From: Amphiscolops sp. MND2022
Taxonomy: Eukaryota
Reading direction: 5' to 3'
Assembly: GCA_964187785.1 (NCBI GenBank)
Contig: OZ076409.1
Coordinates: forward strand, 32,056,001-32,120,000
Length of the DNA stretch: 64,000 nt
Numbering within the stretch: the first letter of the stretch is position 1; every line of letters starts with the position of its first letter. The translations under genes and the position numbers were made by a program. The notes beneath the pieces are model-generated. The model was not told the DNA's origin. It ran no database searches and worked only from the letters and a program-made list of their open reading frames with translations. Below, piece by piece: positions 1 to 40,380 of this stretch.

Positions 1-3000
1 GAAGGTGCCCATCCGCATCAAAAATACCTCACCCACACCATTCACCATCAAGAAAAGTCAGTGGTGGTCGAATTCCACATCACAACACCAAATGTAGCTA
101 AAAACATCAAACCTTTATCCGCAGCAGCAATAAAAGTCCTAACCGAAGATGATTCGGAACAAGCACTTGAATACGTCAACGAGCACCTGAAAACTACGAA
201 AAATCCGAAATGTCCCAACAGTTCTGGTTCCCAACCCCAGACAACCCAGGTGACCTCCACTCACACTCCTGTCCAAAGATGGATCCTCAGGGAGATAGAA
301 GAGTTGGAAGAAATCCAGAAACTTAACCCCATATGCAGCCAACAAGACAGACAAAAACTCCTGGAGAATTTTAAGTGGGATGATTCTCAATTAGACGACC
401 AAAACCGAAAAACATCGAGAACATACTTGTCGAATACCACGACATATTTGCCCGCCACCGCTTGGACATTGGCGTCAACCATGACTTCAAAATAAAACTG
501 ACACCAAAAAACGACCAACCAGCTTACACGCAGAGCCTACCCTGTCCTGTAAATCTCAAAGAAGACCTCACAGTGGAAATAGCCTTGATGCACTACTACG
601 GCATCATAACCACACTACTTTTCATTAAATACGCTAGCCCCATTTTTGCTCAACGAAAGCCAAATGGGCGAATTCGACTGTTAGTTGACCTTAGAAAGAT
701 CAACAATCAAATAGTTGACGATTACACGAACAGCAACCACCCAGTCAGCACCTTCTCCGACGCCGCACAACACCTCGCCGGAAAGAAGTTATTTTTGCAA
801 GCTAGACTGCTCCCAGGCTTATCACGTCCTGCGAATGGCAGACAAAAAGTTGGTAGAACTACTAGCTTTCAATTTCGCCAGTCGAACATTCGCGTACCTG
901 CGACTCGCTCAAGGGCTCAGCAGGTCCCGCTCCTCCTTCTCGAGCTCCATGAGAGAATATCTCGATCGAGTCATCAAAGCTGACAAATGCGCTCAGTACG
1001 TCGACGACATCGGGATTGCCACCCACAACTCCGAGGAGCTGAAGACCAACCTGCGTGAGGTTTTTTCAGTGCGTCCGAGAAGCAGGTTTGCGTTTGACAA
1101 TGGCCAAATGCCAGTTCGGCGCCAAGGAAGTCCAATTCCTCGGACGAACTGTGTCACCCGAAGGAATTGCTCCACAAGACCAGAAGATTCAGAATTACTT
1201 GCAAAAATTGACTTTCCCAATGCCGGTGCCAACTTACTCATGACCGATGCCAACTTCAAAAACGCGGGTTACGCCCTCATGATCGAAGAGAACGCAGAAG
1301 AAAAGATCACATCAGTAAGGAAAACTTGCGCACCAGTGGCATTCGGTTCCAAAATGTTCTCTACGTCACAAATTAAAATGTCTATATACGCGAAAGAATT
1401 CCTAGCCATGTACTTCGCCTTTATGGAATACAGCCACATCCTATGGGAATCAACCAAACCGGTTGTCGTCCTCACGGACAACAAATCTGTGACACGCTTT
1501 TCCAGACAAAAATCATCTCTCCAGCCTTTTGGAACGCGTGCGATTTTGTCCTCCAATTCCACTTCACCATTGTTCACGTGCCGGGAAAAATGAACACAGC
1601 CGCTGACTTTCTGTCCCGCCTCGACATACAGCCGAAAGACAAGGTCCACATCACGATACGAGACGACATACGTACCACACCTATCCAGGTGAACATCCAT
1701 TTGTCCGACGTCACAGAAGAGGAGCAGTTCCTCTTCATTCCCGGAGACGATACGGAAACTGAGGAACAAATCTGGGAACGCAAACTTCGGGCACGCAAGA
1801 AAATCGAAGAAGGCGGCAATACCAAACCCCACACAGATGAAACAACCACCGAAACAACGGGCAGTGACCAAGAAGTCACTACAATTCAAGCGGAAGTACT
1901 AGTAACCCAAACAATCTCCGAAACTACCAGTGAAGACAATGGCCATCGAAAACTATGCGACATCAACAAGACCAAGACAACATCCTGAGAAATTATAAAC
2001 TCCCCTTGCTCAAAGAACCTTACAACGAGCAGCTCGATACATTGCCCAGGACAGCAGAATAATCTTAAAAGATGGACTGTTATACCGGCTGTACTATGAT
2101 CACGCAGGAAAAGTCAAATTCCTACAGATTCTGCTACCTGAGCACTTAACCGACTCATTCATCCTAGCGCACAATGGACAAGCAGGCAAACACCCAGGAA
2201 TAACCAAAGTGATACAACAATGTCGGGAGAAGTACTACTCTCCAGGCATGGCAGCCAAGATAGCTCACCACATCTCCAGATGCACCGAATGCATGCAGAC
2301 AAAACGCACAGACAAGCGGTCCATAACGCCACCGATGATCGACACGTCCAAAATGGCCCTAGGCCCAGAGGACGCCCACCAAATGGACATTGTCCCCTTT
2401 GATGAGCCCTCAGGTGGGTATAATGCAATCGTCACCGCAATGGACGTCTTCTCTCGCTACCTTTTCACGTACAACGTAGTAAACAGATTCCCCCACAGTT
2501 GCCCGAGTTCTTGTAGACAGCATGACCCGCCACGCCTACCTCCCACCCACTGTTATTACTGACAAAGGCAGTCAATTCATGTCTGAAGATATGGCCGACG
2601 CGACCAGGATCATGGGCATGCAATTTATACATGCCACAACCAAACACGCCCAAATTATCGGAATCTTAGAAAGATGTCATGCTTCACTGAAACAGTCATT
2701 GATGATATCAAAGGGAGAACGACGAACGATGTGCACCAGTATGTAGCCATAGCAACACTTAGCTACAACACATCGTACCACTCCGCCCTGGGCTGGGAAC
2801 CCAGCAGAGGCTTCCATGGAAGAATCCCCTACAATGTGCTGGATCTCAAATTTGGCATACGAAGCGGACGCCACTCGACACCGACAACAAACCCAGGAGA
2901 AGACATTCTACACAAAACACACCAGATCAAAGAAACAGTGAAAAAAATTGATGCGATCCTACATGCGATACAAACAGTATTACGACAAAAAAAAGCAAAT

Positions 3001-3633
3001 GCTCACCCCCTCCACGTCAACGAATACTGCTACGCACTCCACCCCAGAGCGAATACCCAGAGTACTAAAATCCCATTCAGAGAATATCTCTGGACAGGAC
3101 CCTACATTATCGTCAATGTGCTCCCAAACAACAATTACCTTATCCGAAAACTACAGACAAACAGTACACAAATCTTTCACAGGATCCGCCTAAAACCCTG
3201 CCCGACCGACAAATCACTACCGGACAAACCCGTCTTACCTAAAGATTACATCCCAGACACGTAAGTAGACGTCTTTCACGATGACCTATATCCTCAAGCA
3301 TGGCAGTCAAATTCTGAGGATTTTACCACAATACCCAACATCCCAGCTCAAGCAGAACCCACAATAACCATCCCTGAGAGACCCGAAGAACAACGCACTC
3401 AAAAAGAAGCCCTAACACCCGACCCAAGAGAGCTTCTCTCGGCACCTAACCCAGATGAATACCCAAATGACACAACACCTAGCCTCGGTTCAGACAACCC
3501 CGAAAACGAAATCCCACGCCCCAATTCGCCACGAAAAAACAAATACAATCTACGAGCAAACCCCCCATCGAACTGGAAAAAGGATTATGCTTATTATAAC
3601 CCGATAAACGTTGACCCTATCTCACAAAACTGA
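1..3633 (+). pseudogene. pol: Gypsy pol (RT, RNase H, integrase), frameshifted
   Basis: RT motifs YASPIFAQRKPNGRIRLLVDLRKIN, KLDCSQAYH, LAQGL, QYVDD; RNase H MTDA, YAKEFLA, LTDNK, ADFLSR; integrase H..H..C..C (HPG...CTEC), MDIV, ITDKGSQF, ILER, and WTGPY. Spread over several frames, with an apparent deletion near 1220. Confidence 0.95.
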
Positions 3634-3971: not shown

Positions 3972-6900
3972 TCACCGCTTGCTACCATTTTTCTTGTCCT
4001 TGGAGACGTTTGACGAAAACTGACCTGAGGACAACATTTCTTTTCGTTCCTGACGTCTCTGCTGCAACACTCGGGTGTCACTTGACCGCACAGGACTACA
4101 TATCAGTAGGGACTTATCAACAGTAACAGCACTTGAGGGAGGCGGCGTACTCGGAGAAACACGTTTCACTTTGGCAGCATCAAAGTACACACAAGAACCA
4201 GCCTGCGGATTAGCAACATCAGCGTCAGCAGATGGAGAAACGCTCGAACCACCCGTGCCTGCAACTGACAGTTTCGACAAGATGCCCAAACGGTGACGCC
4301 AGTCGTCCATCTGCTCCAGAAAGTACGCGTCAAAGCGATCACGTAAACTACGGTACAAGTCCTGGTGGCAATGTTGATACACCGTAGTCCACGGAGAGAA
4401 AGGAGCATCCTCAATAAAGTTCTTCTCAGCAGGAAGATTGACCTTTAGATCATCCAGACAGTCTTTCGTTAACACTTCCCCAGAACTGAAGCCAGAGAAG
4501 GAAACGTAGGTCTGCACAGACAGAATAGCCGAAGTAAGAATCTTCGACGGAACAGCCACAACATTCAACGAGATGTCCACATCAGGATACGACACTTCGC
4601 GAGGCACCACCAGAACTGAGGAGAATTGAACAACTCGTGACAAATGGTCTCGACAACTGAAAGCCTCGGACTCCCGCATGAAACTAAAAGTGTCTTTGAT
4701 GGTAGACACTATCCGGCGATCCCGCCGACGCAACTCCACCAAGAACGACTTGAACTCGTTGCAACATCGTTCAGCCTCTACAGCAGTCAATCGTCCACAC
4801 ACTTGGTAAAAAGCAACGAGACCGCGAAATAGCTCAACATTATATGACTGTTCGCCTAGAAGCAGCATATCTGGCGAAAAACAACTCAAGTTGGAAAAAA
4901 GGCAAGAATTCATAAAGGCGGACTCATTTAATACTCTCAGTAACCCCATAAGTAAAGAATAGCACTCGCAACGAAAAGAACGACGTACTGCAGCGGTACA
5001 TCCAGCCAATGCCTTCACCACAACGGGTTCTCCTACTAGGCACTCCGCATACGATATGTTCGGCCAGGTTGTCAAAGGTGTGCCGACATACTCGCTCCAG
5101 GCATCAATTTCAGGCAATTCAGATACCTTTTCAACTTCGCTGAGCAGACTCCAATAAAAAAAGCAGAATTCAGCATAATTCCTGCAACTGTAGTCGGTAA
5201 CCTCAGCAACGAATTGTTTCTCGAAATTGGACAAGAAACACAGAACCAGCACTTGCAGCACACACAGTCGGGGCAAAATATGGTCATCAGCCAGCACCAT
5301 CTGACTCAAGTCTTGCGGAACCTTGCTCCGGGATGTTGAAACTACACCACCCTTGCCCAAGAACAGCTCAATATCTCCCCAATGATTGTCTATCTCATCA
5401 AGAACAACGCTGAGAGAAGCGAAAGGAATATCCCGCTGTTGAATACATCGCTGCAATGTTGCAAGTCCAAGCATCCAGGACTGTTTCAAAGCACGGTGAA
5501 AGCGCAATAGCAGATACACAAAAAGAGCGAAGCAGTCCAAAGCACTGGAACCATTTTTGCCCGCTTCCTGAACATGCTCTTTGAACACCTTTGGAGTGTA
5601 CTCAGAAATGAACACAGGTTTGAGCTGACACTGCGAAACACACCACTCGGTCACCACAATGGAGAGAGTCGATGAAATCCCCCGCCGGCAAACAGGCGAC
5701 TGTCCGGCACGTAGGATGGCAAACATCCGGGACAGACCAACAATCTCGGAATCACAAAGACCCGGCAACTCGAATTCCCACAAGACGCAAACCTCACGCA
5801 AGGTGCCATTAGCAAAACATTGCACATAAAAGCGCAAACCATCCTGGTCTTCCCGCAGGCCTGCACTGAAGAAAGAATCCTTCACTCATCCTTGAACTCG
5901 GCGAAGAATCCGGGGGTATAGAGTATGTCCAATTTTTTACTTACGTCTCCGTCTCCGTCTACAACTAGAATCCACAGGGAGTGCCGCCTGGAATTGACTC
6001 CACAACCGTCTCAGAAAGCGATGATACCCCCACTACGAATCAATTCAAATAAACCTCCGACTAGGGTTGAAGACGGCACGTTTGACACCACCCCCACTAA
6101 CGCATCGACCTCATCTTCTAGGAAGAGATTTTTCTTGCCCAGGACTACCGCAGAAGTCTTCTCGATCTCGGCCCGCAACTCTGCAGAAATTGACGAAACA
6201 GGCACCCCATCGAACCGAGTAGTATAGAGGACATCCTCTTGGTCCAAACGAAAGCGACGATCTTTTACGAAGTTGCTTTTGCTGATAAAGTAACGCCAAA
6301 TTTCCGGCTCACCCCGACTGAGGAAAGACACGTCCCTACGGCACACAGCACAATTGAACCCATTGGAATTCCGGTCGGATCGGCGACTCAGGAACAGCTG
6401 TGGCAGAGCATGACTAGCCATTTTTTTGCGCAACACATTATGTTCCACTTGTCGCCGCTTTCTTCTCTCATACTTGGCATAAAGCCGGCGTTTCGTCTCT
6501 TCCTCCGCGTTCATCTGGGACTGTCTAGACTACATGTTCTTCCCTTTTGACTTCAAGAGGCGGACGATTTCAGTGAGACCTAAATAGACAAACAAACCAA
6601 TACCCCGGAGCATACACTTTCAGAAGACAACCAATTATGTGAGAACAGAAGAAGCGATAGAATAACCCAAAGGCACACACACAAAATCAAGCACAAAAGG
6701 AAACTGACGTTTTGAGAAACTACGTTCATCTTCTCGTTTTTGACTTTGTTCCAGTCTAACAGCCGCCTGCCCAAATGCCAGCACTTGTGACGAAGAAAGA
6801 CACATAGCCCCGGATGGAATATCTGAGAGACCAGCTGAAAACATAAACCAGGATGAGTCACAAGCCCCAATGCTATACAAAGAAAGACACGGGAAATAGG

Positions 6901-7882
6901 ACAATGAAGTTTCCAATATCAATGGTAATCACCTTCCTCCCATTCATTGTGGAGGACAGACCGCTCCAGACCGACACTAGGCCGAGCATGTTGGGTACGC
7001 TAACAAGTTTTACCAGAAGATGGCCCAGATTCAAAGGCTACAGTGCCACTCACGATGGCAGTCGTCCCGACAGTCACTGGCGCCAGACGTCGGACCAGAC
7101 TCTTTGTGTGCACCCGCACCAGGCAACAGTGGAGTACTACCTGGAAACACACCCTTACTCAATGCCATCAATACTACCTTAGTACGACCATGACAGAACG
7201 AACACCTACTGAATTCGGGCAACTGCAGAAACAACGAGTCATCACTACCCTCGTCATCTGATGAATCCAAAGCAGCAACTCGTGAGCGCTTAGTAGTCGC
7301 TTCCGGAAGAGCAGAATGCAATCGCTTGCTACGGCGACTACCAGATTCACCAACAGAACTCCCAGGCACAAAATCTGCGTCGAGAGGATCATCACTATCT
7401 CCTGCACAAACCCATATTCCATTAGAAGAATGACGCGTCTGTTTACTAGCATAAAACTGGTAGCTGGCCACTAAATAGCTAAGAGACTTACCCTGTCGTT
7501 CGCAAAGATAGTCCAAAGAATGTCTATTGTCACTCTCAGTAGAATGGTCTAAATCGTCACAGTTTCCCTCTCCTTCAACACCACCTTGCTCGCTATCACA
7601 CTCGTCAATCTGGCCGAAACCAGCTACGGGTCGACCAACCGACCCAGAAACCACAGGGGACTGAGCTACCGTCTCACGTCCAGCATCGTCTGACTCCTCT
7701 GCGATCCTCAATTGACCCTCAGCAGCAAAATTGTCTTCACCCACTTCCTGTTCTTTTCCAGAAGTTAACTCATTTTCAGTGTTTTCTCCATCATTGCCCC
7801 GTGACTCGAACTCACTTTCTAACACTCCAATTTCTTGCGAACGCATAAAACGCGCAGCATCCTCATCAATTGACTCAGCCAT
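3972..7882 (-). pseudogene. Antisense multi-exon cargo gene of element 1; degenerate hAT-transposase-like protein
   Basis: ORFs 7031-7882, 6011-6514 and 3972-5885 on the minus strand. Candidate GT-AG introns 6932-6835 and 6723-6580 keep the frame. A CAVC zinc-finger-like segment and hAT-like spacing of motifs are present. Confidence 0.6.
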
Positions 7883-8158
7883 CCTCTCTTTTTCACAAAC
7901 AATCTGAAAATACCACTCACTCGAAGACGTGGTGTAAAATCAGCGAAGAATAATAATATTAGCTACTACTACTATGACGTAATGGAAGTCAATCAGTCTG
8001 CCAGCTGGAAACTCTCCCAATCACGCAAGCGACGTGAACAAGTATGAAAGGAATAGAATTATCATTCAACTACTCAGCCATTCCTGAAACAGTCACTTAA
8101 CATCACACACAATTATCAGCCTCATTATCACACCTAGCTTACTTTCATCGCTAATACA

Positions 8159-8739
8159 ATGACTTCATTAGATTTGAACTTGTCAAGCGATTGCGTTAAT
8201 CTGGAACGCGACCAGGACGCATTTCTACAAACCACCGCTGCACAATCAACACCCAAGACGCCGGTGATTCATGAAGAAAACAAGCACGTATCTATTATTC
8301 AAGACGTATATGAGCTCATCAATACAGGGGACGAACACATCGTTCTTTACCATGAATCAACCCCGACATCTATATTAATGACGGAACAGGACATATTACC
8401 AATCAGAAGATTCACTACTTTTAACCCAATTATACCAGACGACGTCTTTATGAGCCCACCACACGAGTCTATGAAAATATGAACAGCTGGTTGCACAGTC
8501 CGAACGAGGCAGAAATGAGCCCTGTATCAAACAAAACAAGCTCGATTGGATACTTCTCGGGCAGCGATTGGTCTTCATTATCAGAGTCTACGTGGTTTAC
8601 TTATGACTCACAAATTCAATCTATCTTCCTTCCACCAATATCGTCTCCATTCAGGCCAATTTCCCTACTTCCCCCTTATTGGACGCTCCTCAAGAAAGCA
8701 GGGGACTGTCACAGCCCCAGCGGTGCTGCGAGGAAATAG
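8159..8739 (+). CDS. Small hypothetical ORF pair in the 3' region of element 1
   Basis: Overlapping ORFs 8159-8482 and 8479-8739, divergent from the antisense gene; no recognisable motif. Confidence 0.25.
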
Positions 8740-9848
8740 ATCAGTTGAGGACGCCTGAGGAGGAAAGTGAAGAAGATGACTAAAATAACAACATGAGAAC
8801 CTGAAAGAACTAAACCAACAAACATCCACTGACACATAGAACAACTATATAGTTATTTAAAGAATATTAATAAATTGATCCCAGTGCAGTACCTAAATTA
8901 CATGAAAATGTAAATACTTAAATAATATTAAGTGCTGTAAAGGTGATTTGTTTACAGTAAATTGGCCGGTGCGACGAGTGGAATTAATCCAACAAGCATA
9001 TCGACTAGTTTACTGTCTCAATAACAGAGGAGCTGAACGACTCAATTTTCATTCTCTCATAAATCAACCAATCAGCGATTAGCGCAAATGAACAGCACAG
9101 CGCTAGCGGAGTAGTCATCCTAGTGAACTCTTCAGTCGACCGAAATCTAGGACGACCGCCCAGTCGCTCGACTGAATAATTAATAAAGATGCATTAAATA
9201 ATCAGCACTCTGTGCTAACCGTAATACAATCCCAGCTCAAAAGAAGCTGAAATACGATAGAATATGCATGTAAACGAAGGAATAGTTACCTAATAATTTG
9301 GAATTGATGCTAACGAACAGACTTAATAATACTAATTTTGAGTCAACCACCCAGGCAACCTTCCAATTGTACTTAATTTTGAAATTAACTCCCATTACCT
9401 ATATTACTGTCCTAAAGATTTATTACGATCAATGTACAATGTATAATACATATACGGTCCTAATCGAATTTGTAAAACGTTAAAAGGATGAATAGTAGTG
9501 AAATGTGCCGTAGTGCTATTGATGAGATAGCAAGTGTGAAAAATATTTGTCTGAATCCAAAATGACACCCCAGTCTCCTCCCCAACAATCTAAACTTTAT
9601 TTTTTCGCAGAACGATGGAACTATTCGATTTAAGGGTGTACACTATTTACACCCATCGATGCGGTATTACCATTCCCTTGTTACGTATTAACCAGTCTAA
9701 TATGCTGTTTTGTTAAATGTTCTACTAATAGTGAAATTTGTTCAAGCAATTCGAAGTCAACACTCTAGTCAACCGTTCAGTCGACCTGGACTAGAACGAG
9801 CTACCAGAAGTGCGACCAAGATAATTAATTGTCCATTCAATGTGAAAA

Positions 9849-10885
9849 TGTTGGTGCTGAGGAGTACTTAATTATTATTTAAATTGGAAAATGTACTTAT
9901 TTCATATATTGTGATATCGGTGATTAATTCCCATTTTGTTTCGATGTAAACTTATTACTTTTCCCGCGTAAGTTGCTAGGTCCATGAACTTCCATTGCAA
10001 ACTGTGAACTCGGCGTCACAAATTGGCAGGAAATGAAGGAGAAGGAACGCGGAATCAGGACTTCGGAAGGAAATGAATTCCCACTTTTCTTGAAGTGAGA
10101 TGAAGCCGAATGCCGAGGCCTGAGGAACCTTTCCTAATTCGGATTTTCCCGCCATGGAAGGAAGCCGAGTGGAACGAGGTGTGAGTTCACGTGCGAGATT
10201 TATCCCGCGTGTCTAGCGAAAAGTATAAATATACCTGACGCTGGTTAAGAGTGTTAAGTGTTGAATTTCCTTAGGATGAAACCAACTTGAAGCAGTTTTA
10301 CCCTTGGAAAGATCACACTTTTGAAACTATCAGTGATCTAATTTCAGCATTTTGTATCGATCTTGTTTGTTATTTTGCCAACTTCCAGTTGTTCATATTT
10401 TGTTGTTTATCTTGATCAAGTGAACTTGTCTTTTCTGAAACAAGCACTAGAAGGCTGTCAGTTTTTCTCGACTATTTGGAACTTGTTAATTAATTCAAAT
10501 CTTGATAGCCAGATAGTTTCCGTCGATATGCCCGAAAGGTCTCAGAAAAGAAAACTGAGAAGAGACCAACCTGAGCACCATGAGTTGGCTGAAGAGTCTA
10601 GTTTGCAGACTGACCAAAACAATTGTATCTCAGAGCAGGACTTCGAAAATATATCTAGTAAAGTTGAGAATAAAGTGTCTGAGCGTTTGAGAGATACCGA
10701 ACACAATCAGAGAGAAATCCTTAAATTGATAGAGAACTTGACAGCAAAGGTAGATAGTTTGTCTAATTCGACATCATCGGAACCTAACTATCTTAACTCT
10801 AGAACCGAAATCGACGGTAATTTGCAAGGTATTTCGGTATTCGAACACATCGATATCCCCGGACAAAGTAATGAGTACTCCAACA
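9849..10885 (+). repeat. Probable 3' LTR of element 1
   Basis: Starts TGTTGG and ends CCAACA (6-bp terminal inverted repeat). TATA-like GTATAAATA near 10222. ORF MPERSQKRK... from 10528 runs to the LTR end. Confidence 0.55.
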
Positions 10886-11600
10886 GGTACAGATACTACT
10901 TCCGAAAAAACGGTGTTTTCTCTCCCTTTTTTCAGGAAATGGCCAAGAGAGTCACCCTAAGGAACGTTACGACCAGTAAAAAAGGGCGAAATCGTTGCCC
11001 CACTAGCCGTAGCACTGCGAGTATCCCACTAATAGCTGTGGCCATTAGGTATGAGGCACTGTCGATCCAGGAGCTATATAAAATTCGGCAAATTCCACCC
11101 TTTCTGAGGTCAAAACATCAAGGAGTTTTTCTCAACTTTGGCTGGCGCTAGGCTCACCAAAATTTTTGGTAGACGTTATTTTTGGTGGCGGTCGCAAAAA
11201 TGTAATCAGTTTTCAGGTAGGGTCACAATATCTATGACCTGGCCCTACCTTTGAGACAGTCCGGATGGATGATAAAATTGGGCATTTTAGTGCATTTTTG
11301 AACTTTTCTCGCCACTGGAAACGAAATTTTTGACGCGGTTTTCACCTTCAAACGTCGTTTTTACTATATAAACAAAAACTGCGAGCTCTTGAGCTCCCAG
11401 ACAACAAAACGATTGAGTGCCATAGCAAGTTTAACAATGTACTCGGAGACTTCGGGAACTAGTCAAAATTTAAGGTTTTTGGGGCCGAAGTCACAGTTAG
11501 CTTTTTCAAAAGTACCCAAAAACTCGCTCCACAGTGCCTACACAGTGAAGTGTACCCTAAACTAGTTTTAGTATACTTGGGATTCTAGGATGCTCTGTCA
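10886..11600 (-). repeat. Diverged inverted relic related to the 5' leader of element 2
   Basis: Reverse-complement matches in collinear order to ~16050-16730: CCGGACTGTC, GAGAAAAACTC, TGGGGCAACG, AATCGTTTTGTTG. Ends are approximate. Confidence 0.55.
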
Positions 11601-12573
11601 CAGTTCTCCAGTGGCGTTCATCAGCGTGCTCAATCCCTATTTTTACAAAAAAAAACCGTGTTTATCCTCACAAAACTGTCAGAATGGTGCTCACAGCGGC
11701 ATTTTTGAGTGCTCGAGCGTGTGTTGACCAGTCAGTTGGGGTTTTTAACTACTTTTCGTTAGATCTGAACGGTTTTCTCGGCTAGCATCAAGAGCCCTTT
11801 CGCTCATATAGGTGTTTCACCTCAAAAATTGTAGCCTCCATGTAACGGCAAGCCATAGCCGTTCAATATGAAGTAGAAGGAACTCCTGAATGGGACAGGC
11901 GCCCATGCCATGCGCCCAATTTGCTTCCTGGGGTAAGAATCGTCCCGATTCTGCCTCTAAAGAGTGCTCACTGGCCTGTTATACTCTGTTATTGCCAACA
12001 GCAACGGGCATTTCAATTTTTTCTCGGAACCACCGATTAGCTGGCCTTCAAAAACTGGAAGTAACAAAGTATCAATTAATTAGGTTAATTTCTTCTATCG
12101 ACAGGGAGTGAAAACAGGTAGCTCTTGAGCTATGGCAATCAAGAAAAGGCAATTTACCACAGCATAAACAATAGACAATAATGCACTGTTAAGTAATAGA
12201 ATGGGGACACGTAGTCACCGTAGGCTTATTCAAGCAAAGAAAAGCATTCTAGCAAGTAATCACAACAATTAGCAGCATAATGCTCAAGACTCAAATCCGT
12301 CGAAGTCCTTTTAATGACACAGTCGTGGTGAGCGGAATTTGACTGAAATTCGGTAGTCTCAAATTTTGAACGAAATTCTCAAAATTTTTCCGCCGACCGT
12401 TAAATAAAAAGAACTGCCATGAGCGTACAAGAATCGTAGAAAAGTTCATAATACGTTTGAAACCATAAAAATAGGTGAAAGACACTAAATGTTGATTTTG
12501 ATGTCGATAAACACCAATCGTTATTCCGGGAAGTTTGGGAGCGAAATTTATCTGACGTAAATCGTTTGTACAG

Positions 12574-12788
12574 GTACTATGTTCTTTTTCCCGTACATTC
12601 TGTGGAAGCAAGCGTGTTCTTCCGTGGGTCTGGATGTTGATTCCTTGGTGAACAGCCTGACCACTTTCGACTCAACCATCAACTCCGAGATCTGGCAAAA
12701 GACCTTGACCCATGCCGCGCACCAGATCGAGAGGTACATTGAGAGTCAGAGGGAAATCAGGTCTGGATACCTAGTCAGCGCAAAAAAA
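12574..12788 (+). CDS. inx: Innexin exon (end of TM2 and cytoplasmic loop)
   Basis: MFFFPYILWK matches the innexin TM2 proline motif. Acceptor tacag at 12573; donor GTGAGT at 12789, phase 0. Confidence 0.85.
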
Positions 12789-13444
12789 GTGAGTAGAGAT
12801 TTTACACGAGGAAACAACTATCCCAATTTCAATCATGACCAAATTTTCATTCGAGTGAAACCTTTGTTGAAACTTGCACAGAGGAATGCTCGAATATAAA
12901 TCTGAGATTGCATATAGTCAGGCTAGGCTCTCTTTTTGTTGTAGAGATCAGCACTTACCAAGAATTGTCTCAAAGTTTATTGCCATATACCTTTTAAAAA
13001 GAAATCCACCAAAGTTTCAGATGGAAACCACCATAATTCAAAATACTTACAATACACTTTACTATAAACCTATTGTTCTACTGCGTACGGGATTACATAT
13101 CATAGATGTTAATAAAAAAAAATTTCAAATTTATAATTATTGTTATTTTTTTTAAAATGGAAAGAGATAAACCATAAGCGTCACAGTTATTTTCCTCATG
13201 CCATTTTAAATGCTATACCTGGGCATATAGAAGCAAATTTAATTGAAATAAATTTTTGTAAGATAGTCTTTGATGATCTTTCAACCAATCAGACACTTTC
13301 AATTTATCACTTTCAATCTCAAAGTTGTTGAACATGATTCGTGAGCTAATCAGAAATTGGAAGTTATCGTGCTTTGCTGTAATAATAGCAACACTCAAAG
13401 TAAAGTATTTCCCGCAATAAATATTGCAGTGATTTTTGTTACAG

Positions 13445-13721
13445 GCTCTCATTTTCGGCAATAAAAGGCGAAGTGATTATCTGACTTCTTTCTATCTGTG
13501 TTTGAAAACTGTCTACGTCATCAACATTTTCGCTCAAATTGCCTTTCTTAACTGGCTGTTGGGCTACTCATTCAAGTACTACGGGCTCAAAGTCATTGAC
13601 TCCAGAGTAACCCCCACAGGCCTGGATGACGGCTACAGGAGGTTTCCAGCTGGACCAGACTTCGAACAGACATTCGGATTCCCCCACGTATCTCTCTGCG
13701 ACTTTCGCGTTAGGATACTTG
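13445..13721 (+). CDS. inx: Innexin exon (TM3 and start of extracellular loop 2)
   Basis: YLTSFYLCLKTVYVINIFAQIAFLNWLLG and FPHVSLCDF (innexin FPRVTxCDF). Acceptor tacag at 13444; donor GTGGGT at 13722, phase 1. Confidence 0.92.
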
Positions 13722-14317
13722 GTGGGTAAACAATCAGATGTTTCCCTAAAAATGCCTATTGGAAAAGTCCGTAAAAAATTATCTAGACAGTTGCCCTGTA
13801 TAAGAGTGTGTATGTTTGGGTTTGCGTTGCAAATTAAGCCCATGAAGACCGTTTATCTAAGAACTCTCTTTAAAACGAAACTAGTTTTTTCCGCCGTGAA
13901 AATAAGATAATAAAAGTTAGAGACTGTAGACTTTTTCCTTCAGAATTTCATTTCATTCTGGTCAGTTCATGATTGTTGTTGCTAATATGCATGCTTTCAA
14001 GTGTGTTAATCACCCAGGAATCAAAAGCCACCCTTCAACTGAATATTTCATCCGGCTACTTAGGTGTACGCAAGTCTCCCACGACACCAAATTCAATCGA
14101 TTTCTGTTCATTGAGTTTCCGTAATTCAATTTTATAGCTAGACTTGCAGTAAACCAAGGGCTATTTCTAGTGATGGAGAATTGAATTCAAAAAACAAACT
14201 TATCCCGATAAACTAGGAACGTGCGTATAACGCAACATGTTAACTTTTTTGCAGTGTACCTGTTGCACAAGTACCCTTAACAGTAAGATTTTCAAGCCGT
14301 TTTTGTTGTTTGAGTTT

Positions 14318-15042
14318 TGTAACGGCACCCTGTGATCAACAAATTTTTCGAAGTTTGACGATTTTCTGAAAAATTCGTTCAAAAGTGACGTGGCCCTCAA
14401 ACATGAGTTCACGAGGTACCAGTCCTGCAAAATCATAAAGAGCGTGCACAAGCAAAGCCCGCGAGGCGGAAAAAAGAAGCGGAATGTCGAAAAAGTGCGT
14501 GAAACGTCATAAAACAGAAGAACCGTAGCCTATGCGCTAATTCCCACGGTGCCCATCACAGTTTGCACAGAATCAGCATGTTCGAGTAATTATACTATCC
14601 GGACCCAGGGTTGTGCCGAACCCGAGAACCAGTGCCATGCCACCTAGACCCAATTCGCCAAACTGGATTTTAACTCTTCTTTGACGTGTTATCGATTTGT
14701 TTGATGAATTTTTAATTCGAGAGCTACTCTTGTTAATGTTGATGTCATTTACAATAGATTCCCCTCTGGATCATTCAATTTAGTTCTATGCAACTCGACC
14801 CCCTTTTTACAGGCTATTTACACAGTGGATACGAGGAAAAATCGTATTTCATGTGACTAGTAGCAGTTACAGACCGGAGCAGGTCAGAGAGCATCCCTAG
14901 AGACGGTTCTCCCTTCTCGGGACCGGCATTCCCTAGGAGGACAAAATGGACTGGAGTTATGGTGATTAGTCCCGGATCTTGACCCATAGCTTCGGTTCCT
15001 CCATCCCTTGTAGCGAATAAACGCTCAGCGCTTTTCATTACA
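14318..15042 (+). repeat. 5' LTR of element 2
   Basis: Near-identical to 27624-28348; TG...CA termini; AATAAA near the 3' end. Confidence 0.95.
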
Positions 15043-17662
15043 TGGAACTTCATTTTTTGGCGACCACAGAGTGATCGTCTTTGGGAAGCTTTCCTTCATG
15101 GTTTTAAAATTTCTGACTCTCCGGTGTTTAGCGCCAAGACCGTTTCGACTCTGTGGGAGAAGCCAGAGTTTTGCTCCTATTTTAACGACTGTATGTATTC
15201 TTGGCTGTTGGAACAAAGGAAACCCAGAAAAACCCGAAGAAAATGCGTTTTCAGGTGGGAAAATGGCATTTTGAGGTTGAAAAAACCGTAAATGCATGTG
15301 GTAAAATGTCATGTTGTGTCAGCCCATCAGCGGGTATTTGTTTGACAGGGAATGGCCTTCGTAGCACGTGGCTACGTGTGTTAACCGGTATTTTCAGCTA
15401 TTTTCAGCTTTTTGAGTCATGCATGCCAGGTTTCCGCTGGAGAATAATCCATACTCCACCAGAGCGAAGAGGATGCAAAATGGGGTGTTTGGGTTCGTCA
15501 TTTCCCATTTCTCGTGGAGATGCCTGCCAGGGGTGAAATTTGGTGGACAGAGAGAACATTTCTGACGAAGATACCGTTCCAAACCGCAAGTCTCTAGCTG
15601 GTCTGGATGTGGAGAAATTGCGTGACGAAGATGCACCCCCTTGGACCAGAAATGTCGCTCAGATGGGACATGGTTCGCGAAAATTTTGAGATTGCACCTT
15701 TTTCATGGGGAATCGTTAGTGCAGGTCAGTGATACTTTATAATGTAGCGTCGCCCAGTGAAACGCCTTTGAGCGAAGAAACCAGAGATTTTCATTAAAAA
15801 GACAAATTTTCGCGTTTTTTGAGTGTTTTCTTTGGTTGGAGCACGAGTACTCCGTAAACCCCAACTAGCTTTGCCAGAAAGGTGGCAAAAGTAGCCTCTA
15901 ACCTTGAAGGAGCTGGGAAAAATAACGGGCAATGGTTCCCGTGGCTCTTTTAGGTGAAACAGTTGGAGTTTCCAGTAAAAAGTGCGAAAATTGGGAAAAA
16001 AGGTGAAAAACGCCCAAAAATTACTACTGTACCTAGGTGTAGAGGCCTGGGGCACTGCTGTAAAGCGGTTTCTCGAGTGACTCACAACCCTGGGTACTGG
16101 AAATAGCTTTTGCTAATCGTTTTGTTGGTATAGAGACCAAAAAAGGTTTAAAAAATCCTGTAATTTTGGCTGTTTTTGGGCCTTGCAGAGCATATCATTA
16201 AAAGCTCGAATAACAAGACCTTTAATCAATTCTAGGACCCCAAGCGCTCTCGTATTTTGTTTTTGTGATAAAAATAACGCATTCTGGTGAAAACCGCGTG
16301 CGAAACTTCCCATTCAGTGTCAAGAAAAGTGGAAAAACGCACTAAAATCAGCTCCTTTTCCCCTAAACCGGACTGTCCAACTGTTAGGGTCGGGTCATAA
16401 ATTCCCGAGCCCTAGCAGAAAAGTGGTTACATTTTCGCAACCACCAGTTAAATAGACGTCTATACTGTGGTTTTGGCGGGTCTAGTGTCAACCATGACCG
16501 AGAAAAACTCTGACGTTGTGACGACAGAGCAAGCTCAAATTGCCAAAATTTACCAAAATTGTAGGACTAGTAGTGCCCTACACCGGACGAGCGCGGCTAA
16601 TTGAAAGCCTATGGTAGTGCTAGCATCACTGGGGCAACGCGTTGACCCTCTGACCCTGCCGTAACATTTGTAGTGTCGACCCTCTTAGTCGATTTGTGAA
16701 AAAAGCGTCAAAAAGACCGTTTTTGCTAAAACCCTCTCCACGCCTAGCCCAGATTCCCGGAGAGCCAAAGAGCTTCCACCAAGCTGTCATACCAGCGTTG
16801 TGGGTACCCACTGGGAGCGTGTATCAAGTTTCGTGCCAATCGGTGCAGTATTCGTTGAGAAATTGACGAAAACATACTGCACAAAAACGGGAGCAAAAAA
16901 GCGATATTTTTCAAAATTTTTTGAAGTACCCAAGCACCTTGGCCGAAAAGTGAGGACAAATTGTCGCTCACCATCGTAACCAATACTAGTTGGCACACCG
17001 CTAGTCAAAAAATCGAGCCGCTGCTAGTAACCAGTGCCCAGATAGCGAGCAAATAGACTACATTTTGGTCCCTATTATAAGGTAGGAGTACCGCACGTCT
17101 GTACCGCGGCAGTTTACAAGTATCGGGAACAAGTATCTCAAACCAGTGGTCAGTTCCGTGTACCTACGTGTGTGAAGGATCCCCCAGCAAAATTTGAGCA
17201 AATTTCGACCGCTAGGTGACGGACACGAGCCACCTGTGTTTTTTTGGCATCGTTCGAGAAAAGTCAAAAATTGCTGTGAATCCTTCCCGATCGTCTCATA
17301 GATAACCGCGATCTGAGTTCATTTTCCGCACTTGTGACTGAAAACCTACTACGTGTGCGATTTTGAGCCTGCTACGGCCCTTTGAAGCGATTTCGACCTT
17401 CTCGAGGCATTCGGTAGTTGAAAATTAATTGTTTAAGTCCACACCGAGACGACTGGAGGTCTATCACAGTCTAACACACTTCGGTGACCTCTGGGAACGG
17501 ATTGGGCAAGCTGAGGACGCCTCATAGTCAGGTTGAGTACCTTTCACACAGGTAACGCTTCCAGATTGGTACGGACGAACGGCAGTACAGCCCAATAGCC
17601 TAAAAACTAGAGATATTGGTGTATCTTCTTGCGCCTTATCGCAGCTCAACGGTTGAAGCACC

Positions 17663-20274
17663 ATGTTTTGGGCGAGTGTGGCAACCATAGTCCGGCTGTT
17701 CACGCGAAGCGCGGAGGAAGCTAGCGAGTCTAGTGCACCTGAGGCTATCTTTCCGAGCGAAACGCAAGAGAAAAGCTCGACCCAACGAGAAAGTTCAGAT
17801 ACTATTAGTCAGGCGAGTTTGCGAGAGTGGCCATCTGCGGAATCATTGTTAACCGGTTCCTCCTTTTCAGAAGCAATGAGCGACAGCGTTACTGTTGATC
17901 AACAACGACGAGAAGAGCAAAACGCTACGGCCTTAAATTCACCTGTATCGGAAGAACGTATCCGTACTGGACAATGGATTAAAGACAACCGAGGCGAACT
18001 GGCTGGGTTGTGGCCCAATTCCAATCAAACGGCGGTGGACGTGACCCCAGTGCGTGCCGGGTGCACAGAAACACCCAAGAACAACGACAGCCCCGCTAGT
18101 AAAGATACCAATGCTATCTTGGAAGGCATGACTTACGTTGGTGGGATGAACTATGCCAAGTGTCGTTTGGAAGCTTGTCGGGCAAAGACCTCTGGCAAGC
18201 AACGAGCCTTAGCACGCCTGGCCGACACTCATGCCGAATGTAATGAGCAACACAAAGTCATGACTGCAGAATTGGAAGCCATGCAGGACTCCGTGAAATG
18301 TAGCCTGAGGAGCGCAACTCAACAGACGACGGTGCAAGCCGCAAAGGTGGACGCCATGGGTCATCGCCTGAATGACATGAAGGACTTACTCCTCCAACGC
18401 GAACTGCGTATAGAAGTACGGCTGGCTAAACTCAGTGACCAGATGCGTACTCTAGGTGCTGTATCCCAAGCAACGACTCCGGAAGTTGAGCAAACTGAGG
18501 TTGCTAAACCTGTTGCATCCACGAGTAAGATGGTGCCTATGCGCAGCCCCAACCCACCGATAACATTGAAAGCATGCCCCAAAACGGAACCCAAGGTGTT
18601 CATACCGCCAGTAATGGGCACGAAGACCACAAAGGTCCACGTGTGCACACCCAACTCACTCAGCGCAGTACCAATGCCATCGATGACGTCACCCGGGAGT
18701 AGACCCTATGCCGACCACGTCATCGACCATTGACCTGACCGACACCAGAGCAACTGCTGGCTCACACGCTAGCAGTACGGAGGATGAAGCCTATACCACC
18801 GCCAGGGTAAGAACCGTTGGAACCAACTCAATGTTCTTAACCGCGAGCGAAGGAATTCTTACAGGCAATCCTTGTGCAAGCCCGCAAGAAGGACACTGCG
18901 AACGGCGAGTTGTCTATGCAGGCCACCAGAGGCAGTCGAGACGACTCTCCAGCCCCTAGTGAGGGAGAGGAGGTAATCTCTCCAGAACAGCTGCGATTCA
19001 CAGCCGCCATTTCCAAGGCCATGTCCAAAGAACTGGCCCCTCTACTGGCTGGACGTGACCCAACTCAAGCTAGGCCCAGCGTCTACAGGGGATCCAAGGA
19101 AGGCCCAAAAGTATTCGAACTGCTAGCCAGTCGATTTGGGACTGGAGGCAACCGCTTGCAAGTGCGCCAAGCCTTGACCACTCGGCAGCAATCTGAGAGG
19201 GAAGACTGGATGCAATACTTGGACGCGCTAGAAGGGCTACGAAGCCAAGGCTTACCTGACGAGTCAGTCACTACCAAGCGTTATGAAATCCGCATCGATG
19301 GCGTTCGCGATCCCATCTTGCGAAGAGAATAATCTATTATTTATGCATCCGAAACCACTGTTAGCCAACCTCCCACGGTAGAATCTTTACGATTCACAAC
19401 CCGACAATTGCAGCGTACTAGATCCAAGTCTGCACTGTATGACCCAAGGTACGCAATGAGGTCAAGGCCTCATCCTTTAACACCATTACCAACCAACAAG
19501 ATGGTGCTTCCTCAGGGGGTTCTACCTCCCCCACCCGCTAACAATGCCCCAACAAATGCGGCAGCTGCACAACCCACTGCACGCCTTCCCCTAGGCGCTT
19601 GTTTTAACTGTGGTCAGACCGGACACTTCGCTCGAGACTGCCCCAACCGCGACCAGGCTCGCAAACTTACAAGTGCACCAGAACCTGAGGGGGTGAAAGT
19701 AACAGCCGAGGACATAACTGATGGCGTTCTGGAGAATTATCCGGGATTCCGCCAATGTGCTCATTGTGGGATATTTGACCATGTGGATTCACCGTGCACC
19801 AGAAACCTTGTAATCCCAAACGAGGAGCTTGCTTACAATCGCTGGACCGAGGTAGAATTGGCTGTAGTCACTGCCCAAACCGTACCTTTAGAAGATGATC
19901 GTGTGCTAATGTTACATCCAGCAGAATCACCCGCGTTCTACACCCCCCTGACTATTACCTGCGGTGCCAAGCAAGTTCAAACCTGCTTAGAACCAACCAC
20001 TTTCGACCCTCAAGGACGAACGCTGATTTCTATACACTTGATGTTGGCAGCAGAACAATTGCGTCGACCAATACTAACATTGGTCAAACTCTGGGTCGAA
20101 CTATCACTCTTGTACAAGCGCGTGGAATTACCCCGCCCCAAGGATTGGTACGCCCCAGGGGATTCTGACACCCTCACAACTGATTCCCCCGTGCCTATCT
20201 GTGCCACCATGGATGGCGTAGATCTAATGTTTGAAGCCTGTGTAGTAGTGGATGTTTTTCTCCCTGACATCTGA
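17663..20274 (+). pseudogene. gag: gag-like region of element 2
   Basis: Coiled-coil N-terminus, capsid-like segment (RQQSEREDWMQYLDALEGL) and CCHC knuckle CFNCGQTGHFARDC; broken by frameshifts and stops. Confidence 0.85.
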
Positions 20275-23200
20275 TTGGGCCCCCAAGAACTCAAATGTTA
20301 CGACATAAATCATCAAGAACCCACTGGTGAGGCGCGAATAGACGAGCGTGCTTCACTCGTTGTCTCCTTTGTTGTGCCCCAGGTGGCACCAATTCCATTG
20401 CGAGGACTTGTTGATACAAGTTCAGGTGTGTCAATGACCTTTTCAGGCTTAAACCGTATAGCCGCCCAAACAGGCACTGTATTGAAGCCGTACCAGATTG
20501 ACTTATATGCTGCCAACGGTAAAACCATTAAAACTTTTGGTTTGGCCGAGCAGATCCGTTTTCAGCTGGGAGGTTACGAGCTCGAAAACAAATTCGTCGT
20601 GGTGGATGATGCCATGGGCGTGGAAGACTTCCTATTGGGCCGTAACTTTCTCCGAGCCTATCAAGTGCTCGTGGATCTAACCTCCATGAAGATAATGCTC
20701 CGTGCACCCGTGAAACCTGTTTGCCATCAAGCACATACACAGGTAGGTGATGCTTCTGTAGCTACTCCCGTCGCTTTAGACAGCGACTTGGTTCTACAGC
20801 CATTCGAACGAACGGTTGTCAAAGCAAAACTTATCACCAATGAACTAGAACCACTGATATTCCAAAATGTCATACTGAATGCGGCAATTGCTGACGTATC
20901 GCTGCAAAACATTGTGTTTTTAGAGGACAGCGTTGCCACTGTCAGTGAAGCAGGCCATGTTTTTATCAGCGTGTCCAGCAACCCACAGCGAGTACGAAAA
21001 GGATTCCGGTTGGGCAATGTGGTCCCTGTATCACTGGTCTATCAGGCCATTCCACAGCAGTCTACACCTCAACCTACCCAACGAATTGAAGTGAATAACG
21101 ACCAGTTTGCGTTTGTAAACAAAATTTATGAAGAGATGAATTACGATACTGATTCGCAATTAACTTCTCCTTCTGAGTTTGAGTTTTTGTCTTCAACAGA
21201 CCCTGCTGAGGAAGGTCTTTCAGATCGCGAAATACGTAAGCGTACGGATCCCGAACTCATGGCTCCAGTACAGTACCTGAGTCACAACTCAAGGAGGTCC
21301 AGGACCTATGGGGTCCCAAAGCCAGCGCTTCGCTCGAAAGCATCCTAACTGAATTTGATGATTTGTTGAAACACAAGGCTGATATTGGTCGATGCACTAT
21401 AGCCAAACATCCTGTCGAAATCGAACCTGGTGCAGGGCCCCACCGCGAAGGTGCGAGACGCATGTCCCCCGAGAAGGCAGAACGTGCCAATCAAGAGGTA
21501 CGCAATTAGCTCGCGCTGGGCATGAATCAGCCCTCCTTGTCACCTTGGGCAAGCGGGATAGTCATGGTCAAGAAAACAAATGGCGAGTTACGTTTTTGTT
21601 GTGACTTCCGCCCTTTAAACTAAGTCGCCATTAAGGATGCGTATCCATTGCCTCGCATCGATGAGAGCCTCGCCAGGTTGGGCAAAGCTAAAATCTACAC
21701 CAGCATCGATTTAGTTTGGGCTTTCTGGCAAATTCCCGTCCGAAAAGCTGACCGCCAGAAAACCGCCTTTGCCTGCGAATTGGGGTTGTTTGAGTGGCGA
21801 CGCATGCCCTTTGGTATGTGTAATGCCTCTGCCACCTTCCAAAGAGCGATAGCCCGAGCGCTACGCAAAATCGAGAATCGTGAAGGTAGCATGGTAATGG
21901 CCTACCTTGATGACATTGTCATCGCCACAGAAACGGTGGAGGATCATATGGTACGTCTTCGTGAAGTTTTTGAATGCTTGCGTGAAGCTGGCTTCAAAAT
22001 GAGGGTTGCTAAATGCAACTTCATGAAGTCCGAGACCAAGTACCTAGGTCGTGTCGTGTCAGCAGAAGGAATAAAACCCAACTCCAAAGCTGTCGCAAAG
22101 CTACGCGACTGGGAAATTCCACGTAACAAGACGGAAATGCAGAGCATTCTAGACTTCGCCAATTTTTACCGCGAGTTTGTTCCTTGGCATGCCAAATTGG
22201 TAGCTCCCTTGCATGCCATCACCGGCATTAAAGCCACTTTTGCCTGGCGATCTGAACTAGCCTTCAATGAGATCAAAAAAGCACTCATTGACGCCACTGC
22301 TCTTGCGCAACCAGATTCCGAAGCTGAATTTGTGCTGGACACCGACGCCAGTGCTGTTGCCATTTCAGGCATACTTCATCAGTGGCAAGGCCCACCTGGA
22401 GAAAGGCGCTTGCGCCCCATTGTGTATGGCAGCAAAAAACTCAGCGCCACCCAGGCCAAAAATGGAGCGCCCAAGCTGGAATTATACGCGACATATCATT
22501 TCATCGTGAAGAACCACATGTACTTGTGTCCACGAAAGTTCACGTTGAGAGTGGATAATCAGGCGCTAGCATGGTTAAAAACGTACTCCACGGACCAAGC
22601 CCTCATTGGTAGATGGATAATGGCACTGGAAAATACCATTTCCGTGTCGAACACCGACCACGGACACAACATCGCAATGCCTATGGCTTGTCCAAATACC
22701 AATGATTGTCGATTGAGAAAACAACAGCTCGAAAAACTACCATCAGTTGCAGAACGCTGGAATTTTCCCTCCCAAGACGAGTACGAACGGCTGCCCACTG
22801 CACCTTGGTTTGATGTACAGGGACGAGTGATTCCCAATCATCCCGAGCTACCTTCACACTTGAAAAACCTGCAACCAGACCCCCCCTGATCTGGTCCAAC
22901 GCGTGATTCGCCGCACACAACCAGTCAAACGACGAGTCAGGCAGAAGGAGGCACTGCAAGTTCCCCTGCCCCCACTGTCGCCTCCTATCCTACACGCCCA
23001 TGAAGATTTCTATTGCGATTATCCGGAAGACTGGAGAGATGAGACTGAAGAAGCTCGAAGGTTTAGTGGAGCGCCAAAACCGTACCTTGCTTACTTTGTT
23101 ACGTGTTTTTTGTTCGCAACGAATGCGCGATTGGGATCAGCATCTAGATGAGGTCCTTGGTGCTTACAACTCTACGCGCCATGCAACCACAGGGTTCTCG

Positions 23201-23599
23201 CCCTACATGTTAACCAGAGGCACAGAAAAGGCAATACCTCTCAGATACTTGTACCCTGAGTTTGCCACCCAGTCTTTTCCTACGCACGACGCGTACGTGG
23301 ACCATGTGTTGGCACGCCAACAAGAAATTCATGATTTGGTGCGTAGAAACACACACCAAGCTCAGCTGCGGCAGCAGCTTGAATTTGACCGCGCAATACG
23401 GGCCAAAGCCTACGCAAAAGGCGATTTGGTTTGGTTTTTCTGTCGGTATGTTCCTCAGAAGGGTTCCCCCAAACTAATGCGCGCCTGGCGTGGCCCACAC
23501 CGTGTGGTGCACACCCTGCAAGATGGACGTGTTTACATCCTTGATACAAGGCAAAAGGTCCACTTCGAGCGTCTCAAACCCAATAATAGTGGCATCTAG
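20275..23599 (+). pseudogene. pol: pol of element 2 (protease, RT, RNase H, partial integrase)
   Basis: Protease GLVDTSSG and LLGRNFL; RT MPFGMCNASATFQ and AYLDD; RNase H LDTDAS and VDNQAL; integrase C-terminal half GLVERQNRTL and WRGPH. The integrase zinc finger and first catalytic Asp residues appear deleted near 23050. Confidence 0.93.
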
Positions 23600-23866
23600 A
23601 ATTTGTCGCTACCCCTCTTGACACCGGCGACATAGCCGTAGTCATGGATCCGGAGCCTGAACACTCTATAGAGCCCATAAATGATGACTGTTCAAAACTT
23701 TCCTATAATACTGAACAACTGCTTTCAGAAGCCTCGAATGACCTTCTCGTCAGTGTCACTGGATGGATACTAGACTACGCACAAAGCTGCGTGCGGGAGG
23801 GAACCGCCAACATTACCAACAATTCGACTACTCCCGTCCGACAAAGACGAAGAGACGTCGAGGGCG

Positions 23867-25740: not shown

Positions 25741-25950
25741 AACCAACCGTAAACCCTGGTTGTTCCAGAAGGTTTTACTGTGCTGTTTACTTAGCTTAGT
25801 CATTAATCACTTTATCTAAACCCGGTCGAGGATGCCTTCAGCATCCTGTTTTCATCTAACGAATTCCCTTATGGAATCGGTTTTAACAAAGCACTAATCA
25901 GCATCCGTATGGTAGGAATAACGAACACTTATTTTTAGACCCATGATAAG

Positions 25951-40207: not shown

Positions 40208-40380
40208 CTTCGAGTTTCCTGAGATCAGGTGAACGAAGTTTGTCTGTTCATCTATGCTGCACGCCGGACTTCTCGCAAGGGTAACCTGACGAGTCGTCAG
40301 GTTACCCTTGCGAGAAGTCCGGCGTGCAGCATAGATGAACAGACAAACTTCGTTCACCTGATCTCAGGAAACTCGAAGAT
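40206..40380. repeat. Perfect palindrome, 87-bp arms, 1-nt centre (40293)
   Basis: ATCTTCGAGTTTCC...CTGACGA G TCGTCAG...GGAAACTCGAAGAT. Confidence 0.97.

Follow-up and report, generated by a model that had tools for sequence, protein, structure and literature searches.

An intron-bearing antisense gene with a predicted hAT-like fold in a Ty3/Gypsy retrotransposon clade of Amphiscolops

The locus and its carrier element

The 64-kb stretch of Amphiscolops sp. MND2022 analysed here (contig OZ076409.1, positions 32,056,001 to 32,120,000; hereafter the window, numbered from its first letter) holds the 3′ part of a Ty3/Gypsy long terminal repeat (LTR) retrotransposon of about 15.6 kb, and the minus strand of this element carries a decayed copy of a gene at 3972-7882. 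We consider, with a probability of roughly 0.72, that a Gypsy clade carries here a conserved antisense gene with four GT-AG introns, whose product is a zinc-finger, hAT-derived, non-cutting DNA-binding accessory protein. The firm parts are the position and orientation of the gene, its conserved splice signals, the frame that opens after their removal, selection, and presence in all distant elements inspected.

The antisense gene lies between pol and the 3′ LTR, on the strand opposite to gag-pol. The broken pol of the carrier (384-3633, +) was recognised by Pfam from reverse transcriptase (RT), RNase H and integrase, and its 3′ LTR (8707-10885, +) from LTR identity, the TG...CA ends and the target-site duplication GGTAC that follows it. 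A purine run directly 5′ of this LTR forms the polypurine tract (8692-8706, +). The 5′ LTR, 90.8% identical to the 3′ LTR, lies just upstream of the window (L031:5293-7445), with the primer-binding site TGGTGACAG behind it, and both priming sites are thus present. TG...CA ends are accompanied by a 5-bp target-site duplication, found in 4/4 elements inspected. In a young copy Pfam gave gag and then the order protease-RT-RNase H-integrase, and the LTR pairs of the young subfamily were 99.5-99.95% identical in 4/4 copies checked. The LTR includes the N-terminal portion of gag, so that the 3′ LTR carries a gag fragment, which reads on into flanking DNA (10342-11151, +). Internal tandem duplications were also seen: 540 nt around exon 1 of the antisense gene are repeated in one copy, and LTR-gag segments are doubled in two further copies (L044:4117-5194; L091; L092).

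Head to head with the antisense gene, a sense open reading frame (ORF) runs into the 3′ LTR (8138-8782, +). It is split in the window copy and forms a 265-codon frame in a young copy (L035:5143-5940). A homologue of about 210-270 codons stands at the same place, again running into the 3′ LTR, in 10/10 distant elements. This ORF had no Pfam match, and its single-sequence fold reached a predicted local distance difference test (pLDDT) score of only 36, which is unusable.

Exons, introns and splice signals

Of the 40 matches scored in a DNA search of the same genome, we fetched and aligned 30; counts out of 30 refer to these copies. Eighteen of them form one 99%-identical subfamily, the remainder are about 80-91% alike, and one is partly rearranged. 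On the minus strand the gene was resolved into five exons separated by four phase 1 introns. Exon 1 (7492-7882, 391 nt) is acidic and of low complexity and begins at the ATG at 7882, kept in 9/10 distant elements examined. It is followed by intron 1 (7402-7491; GTAAGT...TGCAG, with GT in 29/30 copies and AG in 28/30), exon 2 (7210-7401; 192 nt in 26/30), intron 2 (7141-7209; GTAGGT...TTCCAG, GT and AG each in 29/30), exon 3 (6933-7140; 207 nt in 27/30), intron 3 (6835-6932; GT and AG each in 29/30, its length taking six values between 92 and 102 nt), exon 4 (6709-6834; 126 nt in 27/30, or 111 nt if the donor is at 6723) and intron 4 (6580-6708; GT and AG each in 30/30). Exon 5 (3972-6579), an 873-codon frame in young copies, bears the C2H2 finger and the hAT-transposase-like fold. 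Donors of introns 1 to 4 read GTAAGT, GTAGGT, GTAAYT and GTTAGT, and the acceptors are T-rich and end in YAG. The lengths of exons 2, 3 and 4 are constant across copies; those of introns 3 and 4 vary, with five or six values.

A first-pass annotation of the window had proposed spliceosomal introns in this gene, and every motif it named is present in the sequence. Its donor at 6932 and its acceptors at 6835, 6580 and 7141 coincide with the sites above. The donor at 6723, with which it closed a 111-nt phase 1-1 exon, reads GT in 27/30 copies and GC in three copies of one lineage, whereas 6708 reads GT in 30/30 (GTTAGT in 29); the phase of that exon holds, and its length is probably 126 nt since 6708 lies 15 nt further on in the same phase, 6723 being a possible weaker in-frame alternative. 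A 37-nt intron at 7177-7141 had to be abandoned: 7177 reads GT in just 8/30 copies, against 29/30 for the GTAGGT at 7209, and the link that it gave to the ORF starting at 7882 leans on a 1-nt insertion near 7069, seen in the window copy alone among the 13 displayed. Intron 1 (7491-7402) had been missed, and ORF 6011-6514, which does belong to the gene, is the mere start of an exon 5 that reaches the equivalent of 3972. An alternative donor for intron 2 at 7205 left 0/30 copies open and was rejected.

When the four introns were removed, the 848 codons covered were open in 13/30 copies. None of the 30 was open unspliced, with intron 1, 3 or 4 retained, or under the intron model of the first-pass annotation. 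Retention of intron 1 gave a frame break or a stop in 28/29 copies that hold it, and retention of intron 4 an in-frame stop in 30/30. Intron 2 is the least certain of the four, its 69 nt being in frame and stop-free in 18 copies and frame-breaking or stop-bearing in 11. Restoration of the frame requires removal of introns 1, 3 and 4, and that of intron 2 is optional in the young subfamily. The eight splice dinucleotides were kept in a mean of 7.88 of eight diverged copies, compared with 4.98 for other GT/AG dinucleotides in introns 2-4 and 5.52 for those in exons. It had been predicted at the outset that conserved GT/AG ends would go with faster divergence of the interiors; the ends are indeed kept and introns 2-4 diverge slightly faster (16-21% mismatch versus 14-19% in exons), but intron 1 does the opposite, with 6.7%.

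Selection was estimated from the ratio of nonsynonymous to synonymous divergence (dN/dS), pooled over eight diverged copies each compared with one open copy, the common reference making the pairs non-independent. In the spliced frame, exons 1 to 5 gave 0.23, 0.20, 0.49, 0.08 and 0.10 (exon 5 over the part to 4960); all are below 0.5, which points to purifying selection on all five exons. The window copy itself is a decayed family member. It has stops at 7002 (exon 3), 6532 and 5888 (exon 5) and frame breaks near 7069 (exon 3), 6026 and 5961-5938 (exon 5), and both finger histidines are replaced.

Upstream of the ATG, an acceptor-like TTTTYAG is conserved 10-30 nt before it (7904-7910, -). No conserved upstream donor for this site was found within 1,300 nt in nine elements; the site might serve a leader exon far away or trans-splicing. 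In the stretch that separates the two head-to-head genes, short blocks (CAGCTGGCAGACTGA and TTTTACRCCAC; 7925-8007) are kept in 9/9 elements and are a candidate for a shared promoter of the two genes.

Recurrence of the gene in distant lineages

In protein searches, 35 relatives of nearly full length were found, the most distant at 42% identity, and 412 representatives had an E of 0.001 or lower. Ten elements with an exon-5 identity of 45-59% all showed the order LTR-gag-pol-antisense gene-sense ORF-LTR, and in 22/22 distant loci inspected (10/10, 7/7 and 5/5 in three sets) the gene lies opposite to gag-pol inside an LTR element. In a second clade, 25-37% identical, it is antisense to pol within LTR elements (7/7 and 4/4), and this clade is abundant (98 and 150 scored matches). 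The gene occurs in hundreds of copies and many lineages, some copies having near-identical LTRs. Of two database fragments, P0145 went unmatched in this genome at E 1e-30, and the matches of P0066 did not exceed 46% identity.

A spliced aligner was then given the predicted product of one copy, without intron positions, and ten distant elements. It placed phase 1 GT-AG introns at query codons 131, 264 and 306 (the last being intron 4) in 10, 10 and 7 of the ten, that is 27/30, and with motif scoring in 10, 10 and 10. Control dinucleotides at the same junctions were obtained in 2/30 (CT-AC), 0/30 (TG-GA) and 7/30 (TT-TG) cases.

Conservation of the splice sites, restoration of the frame, constancy of exon length, third-position divergence in the exons and recurrence of the junctions together support spliceosomal-type introns, and the GT-AG ends, pyrimidine-rich acceptor context and restored frame are those of the U2 type. 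The antisense gene is very probably spliced at these introns. The first-pass proposal of spliceosomal introns in an antisense gene of an LTR retrotransposon is thus supported, down to lineages of 45-59% protein identity. Were the interruptions instead unspliced spacers or cis elements between short ORFs, with just exon 5 translated from an internal ATG, one would have to set aside the frame-preserving exon lengths, the phase 1 shared by all junctions, the selection on exons 1-4 in the joined frame, and a GT-AG recurrence of 27/30 against at most 7/30 in controls. Such an arrangement would suit an intron 1 more conserved than the exons and a Met near the start of exon 5, and splicing is itself deduced from genomic sequence; we nevertheless hold it to be very unlikely.

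The antisense protein is only 25-37% identical between elements whose RT is 72-78% identical, which indicates long co-inheritance under selection. Its tree and that of RT disagree in places: the L076 cargo is sister to that of L074 and the L076 RT is not (L076/L077), and the cargo types of clades D and E are intermixed on the RT tree (L122-L135, L158-L165). This is consistent with cassette exchange among elements.

A predicted hAT-like fold lacking catalytic aspartates

The predicted product is about 1,180 aa long, with an acidic N-terminal extension of about 300 aa and a basic C-terminal tail. A C-x2-C-x16-H-x5-H finger (6272-6352, -) keeps its four ligands in 25/25, 24/25, 23/25 and 25/25 rows of A1; zf-BED gave no Pfam match. 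Pfam and PDB sequence searches with the 873-aa exon-5 frame returned nothing. Language-model features were nearest to hAT/FAM200/ZBED clusters (0.90-0.92), and the named Atlas clusters included GTF2IRD2 and ZBED5. AlphaFold gave a model of the exon-5 frame with a pLDDT of 74.6 and a predicted TM-score (pTM) of 0.65, in which an RNase H core and a helical insertion domain are predicted. Both structure searches are based on this one model. In Foldseek the first 11 ranks were all Hermes chains (E 2e-5; PDB 8edg, 4d1q), and VIA-align matched Hermes with Z 13.0, a root-mean-square deviation of 5.1 and 400 aligned residues, the next match having Z 6.5. The fold match reaches residue 703; the dimerization domain PF05699 had no Pfam match. 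Descent of the cargo protein from hAT appears likely from this predicted fold and the language-model features, on which the assignment rests given that a profile comparison with host hATs was blank.

Catalytic positions were assigned from motifs and predicted strands against six host hAT frames, which keep D, D, C-x2-H and E, and not by residue-level structure alignment. At the first catalytic Asp (beta1, residue 246) the cargo homologues have Asp in 0/29, and at the second (beta4, residue 303) in 0/32, with two Glu; the third place (residue 670) is D or E in 7/28. No conserved C or H was found in columns 325-332, where a CxxH is expected after beta5. The DDE triad is accordingly incomplete in the predicted protein, whose first two catalytic aspartates appear to be lost.

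The hAT fold, together with a genome rich in hAT elements (150 scored PF05699 matches), might suggest that a nested hAT DNA transposon, active or recently dead, is merely riding in the element. The catalytic aspartates, however, are missing in all aligned homologues, the place and orientation are identical in the 22 distant elements, and the low protein identity beside a similar RT implies long co-inheritance. This alternative is largely refuted and in our judgement barely tenable. A captured host gene, either of another RNase H-fold family or a domesticated ZBED/FAM200-like factor that did not come directly from a transposon, would account for the many introns, a typical host-gene trait, and for FAM200, GTF2IRD2 and ZBED5 being among the nearest named clusters. 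These families are themselves hAT-derived, so that the route alone would differ, and no single-copy host homologue was found among the inspected hits, all of which lie within elements; we give this origin a slim chance.

Probable loss of introns at the 3′ end

In the exon-5 region, all seven clade-D elements have an intron at or near residue 217 (six at 217 in phase 0, one at 219), and 7/7 have a second at residue 410 in phase 0. A third probably lies near 445-455, with unstable phase. The clade of the window reads uninterrupted through residue 217. In a tree of the finger exon, 20 rows without the residue-217 intron form one shallow group (99/96) inside 18 more diverse rows that have it, the intron being deduced in 10 of these 18 solely from where the database fragment ends. 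When rooted at its midpoint, this tree indicates that the residue-217 intron was lost and not gained. On the RT tree, elements poor and rich in introns are sister clades, which leaves gain and loss unpolarized. The clade of the window lacks at least two 3′ introns that its relatives have, probably through precise loss. Recombination with cDNA of spliced mRNA is an established model of intron loss, and the pattern would fit it.

A hairpin and a palindrome in intron 1

Within the region, conservation is highest in the interior of intron 1. It contains a hairpin (7458-7476) with a TGGCCA palindrome in its loop, which reads AGGCCT or GGCC in clades D and E; the stem is damaged in the window copy. 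About 30 nt from the hairpin lies a second palindrome, GACGCGTC (7432-7439), replaced by AACGCGTT or GTCGCGAC in other lineages. It is perfect over at least 8 bp in 80/87 loci, the misses being six older family-A copies and one D copy. Symmetry, and not sequence, seems to be under selection there. In 11 sequences centred on the loop, 6/6 stem pairs covary with double-sided changes and 87.9% of stem cells are paired, versus 63.8% when shuffled and at most 65.5% when slid, figures that overstate significance, since these sequences share ancestry and were themselves the source of the structure. When the D/E introns were folded to a consensus, an outer stem was recovered and not the inner hairpin, and neither strand was favoured; Rfam gave one sub-threshold match, attributable to chance.

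The genomic-RNA dimerization sites of Ty3 (PAL6) and Ty1 (PAL1/2) are described as palindromic in the available text of two reports (PMC11381356, PMC6844567). As far as described there, both these sites and that of intron 1 have a GC-rich hexamer palindrome at a hairpin apex; the Ty sites lie near the RNA 5′ end, whereas the intron 1 site belongs to an antisense intron and precedes the 3′ LTR by about 1.3 kb. A palindrome exposed in a conserved hairpin loop is what a dimerization site would present, and by this analogy the signal fits RNA-RNA pairing; a symmetric DNA site or a splicing-control structure is possible too. One might picture a retrotransposon that tamed a DNA-transposon enzyme as a spliced antisense gene, with plus-strand intron 1 serving as a pairing signal of kissing hairpin and palindrome in genomic RNA. 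Splicing would free the mRNA of the mirror signal and so keep it from being packaged, and rare reverse transcription of the mRNA would have erased the 3′ introns precisely in one clade. We regard this full scenario as doubtful.

Other features of the window

Innexin gene fragments at 12561-13729 (+; Pfam) mark an invertebrate animal host. A second LTR element with 97% direct repeats occupies 14318-27923, and its RT is 29% identical to that of the carrier family. Two perfect inverted repeats with arms of 306 nt and 87 nt and 1-nt spacers lie at 39595-40380, possibly a fold-back or assembly artefact, and a homogeneous 10-nt tandem array fills 63500-64000.

Discussion

The gene would have arrived as DNA, from a hAT element or a hAT-derived host gene, and in antisense orientation in the ancestral element, so that its introns face away from the genomic RNA. 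Introns on the minus strand are not spliced from a plus-strand genomic RNA; their splice signals would go unused and the introns would be copied at each reverse transcription. The first-pass argument that such introns outlast the RNA cycle follows from strand polarity. Transcription probably starts at a promoter of the gene's own, in the conserved stretch between the antisense gene and the sense ORF, and the transcript, spliced at the four introns, would give an mRNA for the protein of about 1,180 aa.

By analogy with Grande gene23 and Spm TnpA, the protein would be a non-cutting DNA binder serving the element. If the rest of this reading holds, there is an even chance that its role is to bind the element's own DNA and keep it transcribed or unsilenced, as Spm TnpA does; tethering of the integration complex comes next. 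A gene and introns that are real could also belong to a protein that steers integration, by tethering the integration complex to chromatin or target DNA, or to a structural factor. The strong selection on both insertion domain and core (dN/dS 0.10) exceeds the needs of finger-only DNA binding and speaks for this, and the places where cargo and RT trees disagree (L076/L077; D versus E) may be counted with it; yet the cargo seems to be swapped among near-identical pol genes, a poor fit with a tight integrase partner, and we consider such a function unlikely.

Several points weigh against the interpretation as a spliced gene for a hAT-derived DNA-binding protein. The 30 copies are not independent, and all 13 open ones come from the 99%-identical subfamily. 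The frame is equally open with intron 2 retained, in the same 13/30 copies, and intron 2 was called in 10/10 distant elements at loose positions. No AATAAA was found after the antisense-gene stop in the regions inspected. On the protein side, no Pfam hAT family was found in 32 + 38 homologues, the profile comparison with the six host hATs was blank (probability 0.1, from shallow alignments), identity to Hermes in the fold match is just 10-13% with a TM-score by target of 0.35-0.53, and residue 672, two positions away from where the third catalytic residue is expected, is a conserved acid (27/28). Finally, the splicing is read from the DNA, and the function is argued by analogy.

Compared with Hermes, the cargo shares a predicted RNase H core with a large helical insertion and an N-terminal C2H2 finger, and differs in having no conserved first two Asp or CxxH and in its 300-aa acidic N-terminal extension, besides the low identity. 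Antisense accessory genes of LTR retroelements are also represented by HBZ and APH-2 of human T-lymphotropic viruses 1 and 2 (HTLV-1 and HTLV-2). Those are of bZIP type and are transcribed from the 3′ LTR with a leader splice, unlike the several coding-region introns here.

Antisense extra ORFs between pol and the 3′ LTR (aORF-3R) have been described in maize Grande (gene23), rice RIRE2, Retand (TRP28/PF04195) and Botrytis Boty, gene23 having its own upstream promoter and a nuclear product; in the text available of these sources, a review calls the origins of such ORFs unknown and urges a search for antisense spliced transcripts, and the word 'intron' does not occur in the main text of the Retand paper (PMC7264820, PMC11963269). 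The antisense gene is by its position and orientation an aORF-3R, likewise in Gypsy elements and in most copies. It differs in its animal host, its several introns and its hAT fold in place of TRP28; PF04195 had no match in 32 members at E up to 1. Spm TnpA and its kin are transposases without catalytic residues that a mobile element or host keeps as sequence-specific regulators, and the available text on them does not contain the words retrotransposon, gypsy or LTR (bioRxiv 10.64898/2026.08.24.746577). As far as that text goes, a catalytically disarmed transposase is retained in both cases, here by prediction; there an element keeps its own transposase class or a host domesticates it, and here a class I element would hold a class II enzyme. 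In the literature searched, outside which lie most subscription journals and supplements, we found no description of an LTR retrotransposon with an antisense gene that has introns and derives from a transposase; descriptions in repeat libraries could exist. Antisense ORFs at this place are already known from plant and fungal Gypsy elements, and the multi-intron, apparently transposase-derived version appears to be new.

Such genes are missed by repeat annotators, as no Pfam model matches them and their frame is interrupted. If the reading given here is right, the origin of one antisense extra gene would be traceable, to a hAT transposase, where reviews call both origin and function of such genes unknown, and several introns would persist although the element replicates through RNA. 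A mobile element of one class would have tamed an enzyme that belongs to another class, and the retention and loss of introns inside a retroelement could be studied in a natural system.

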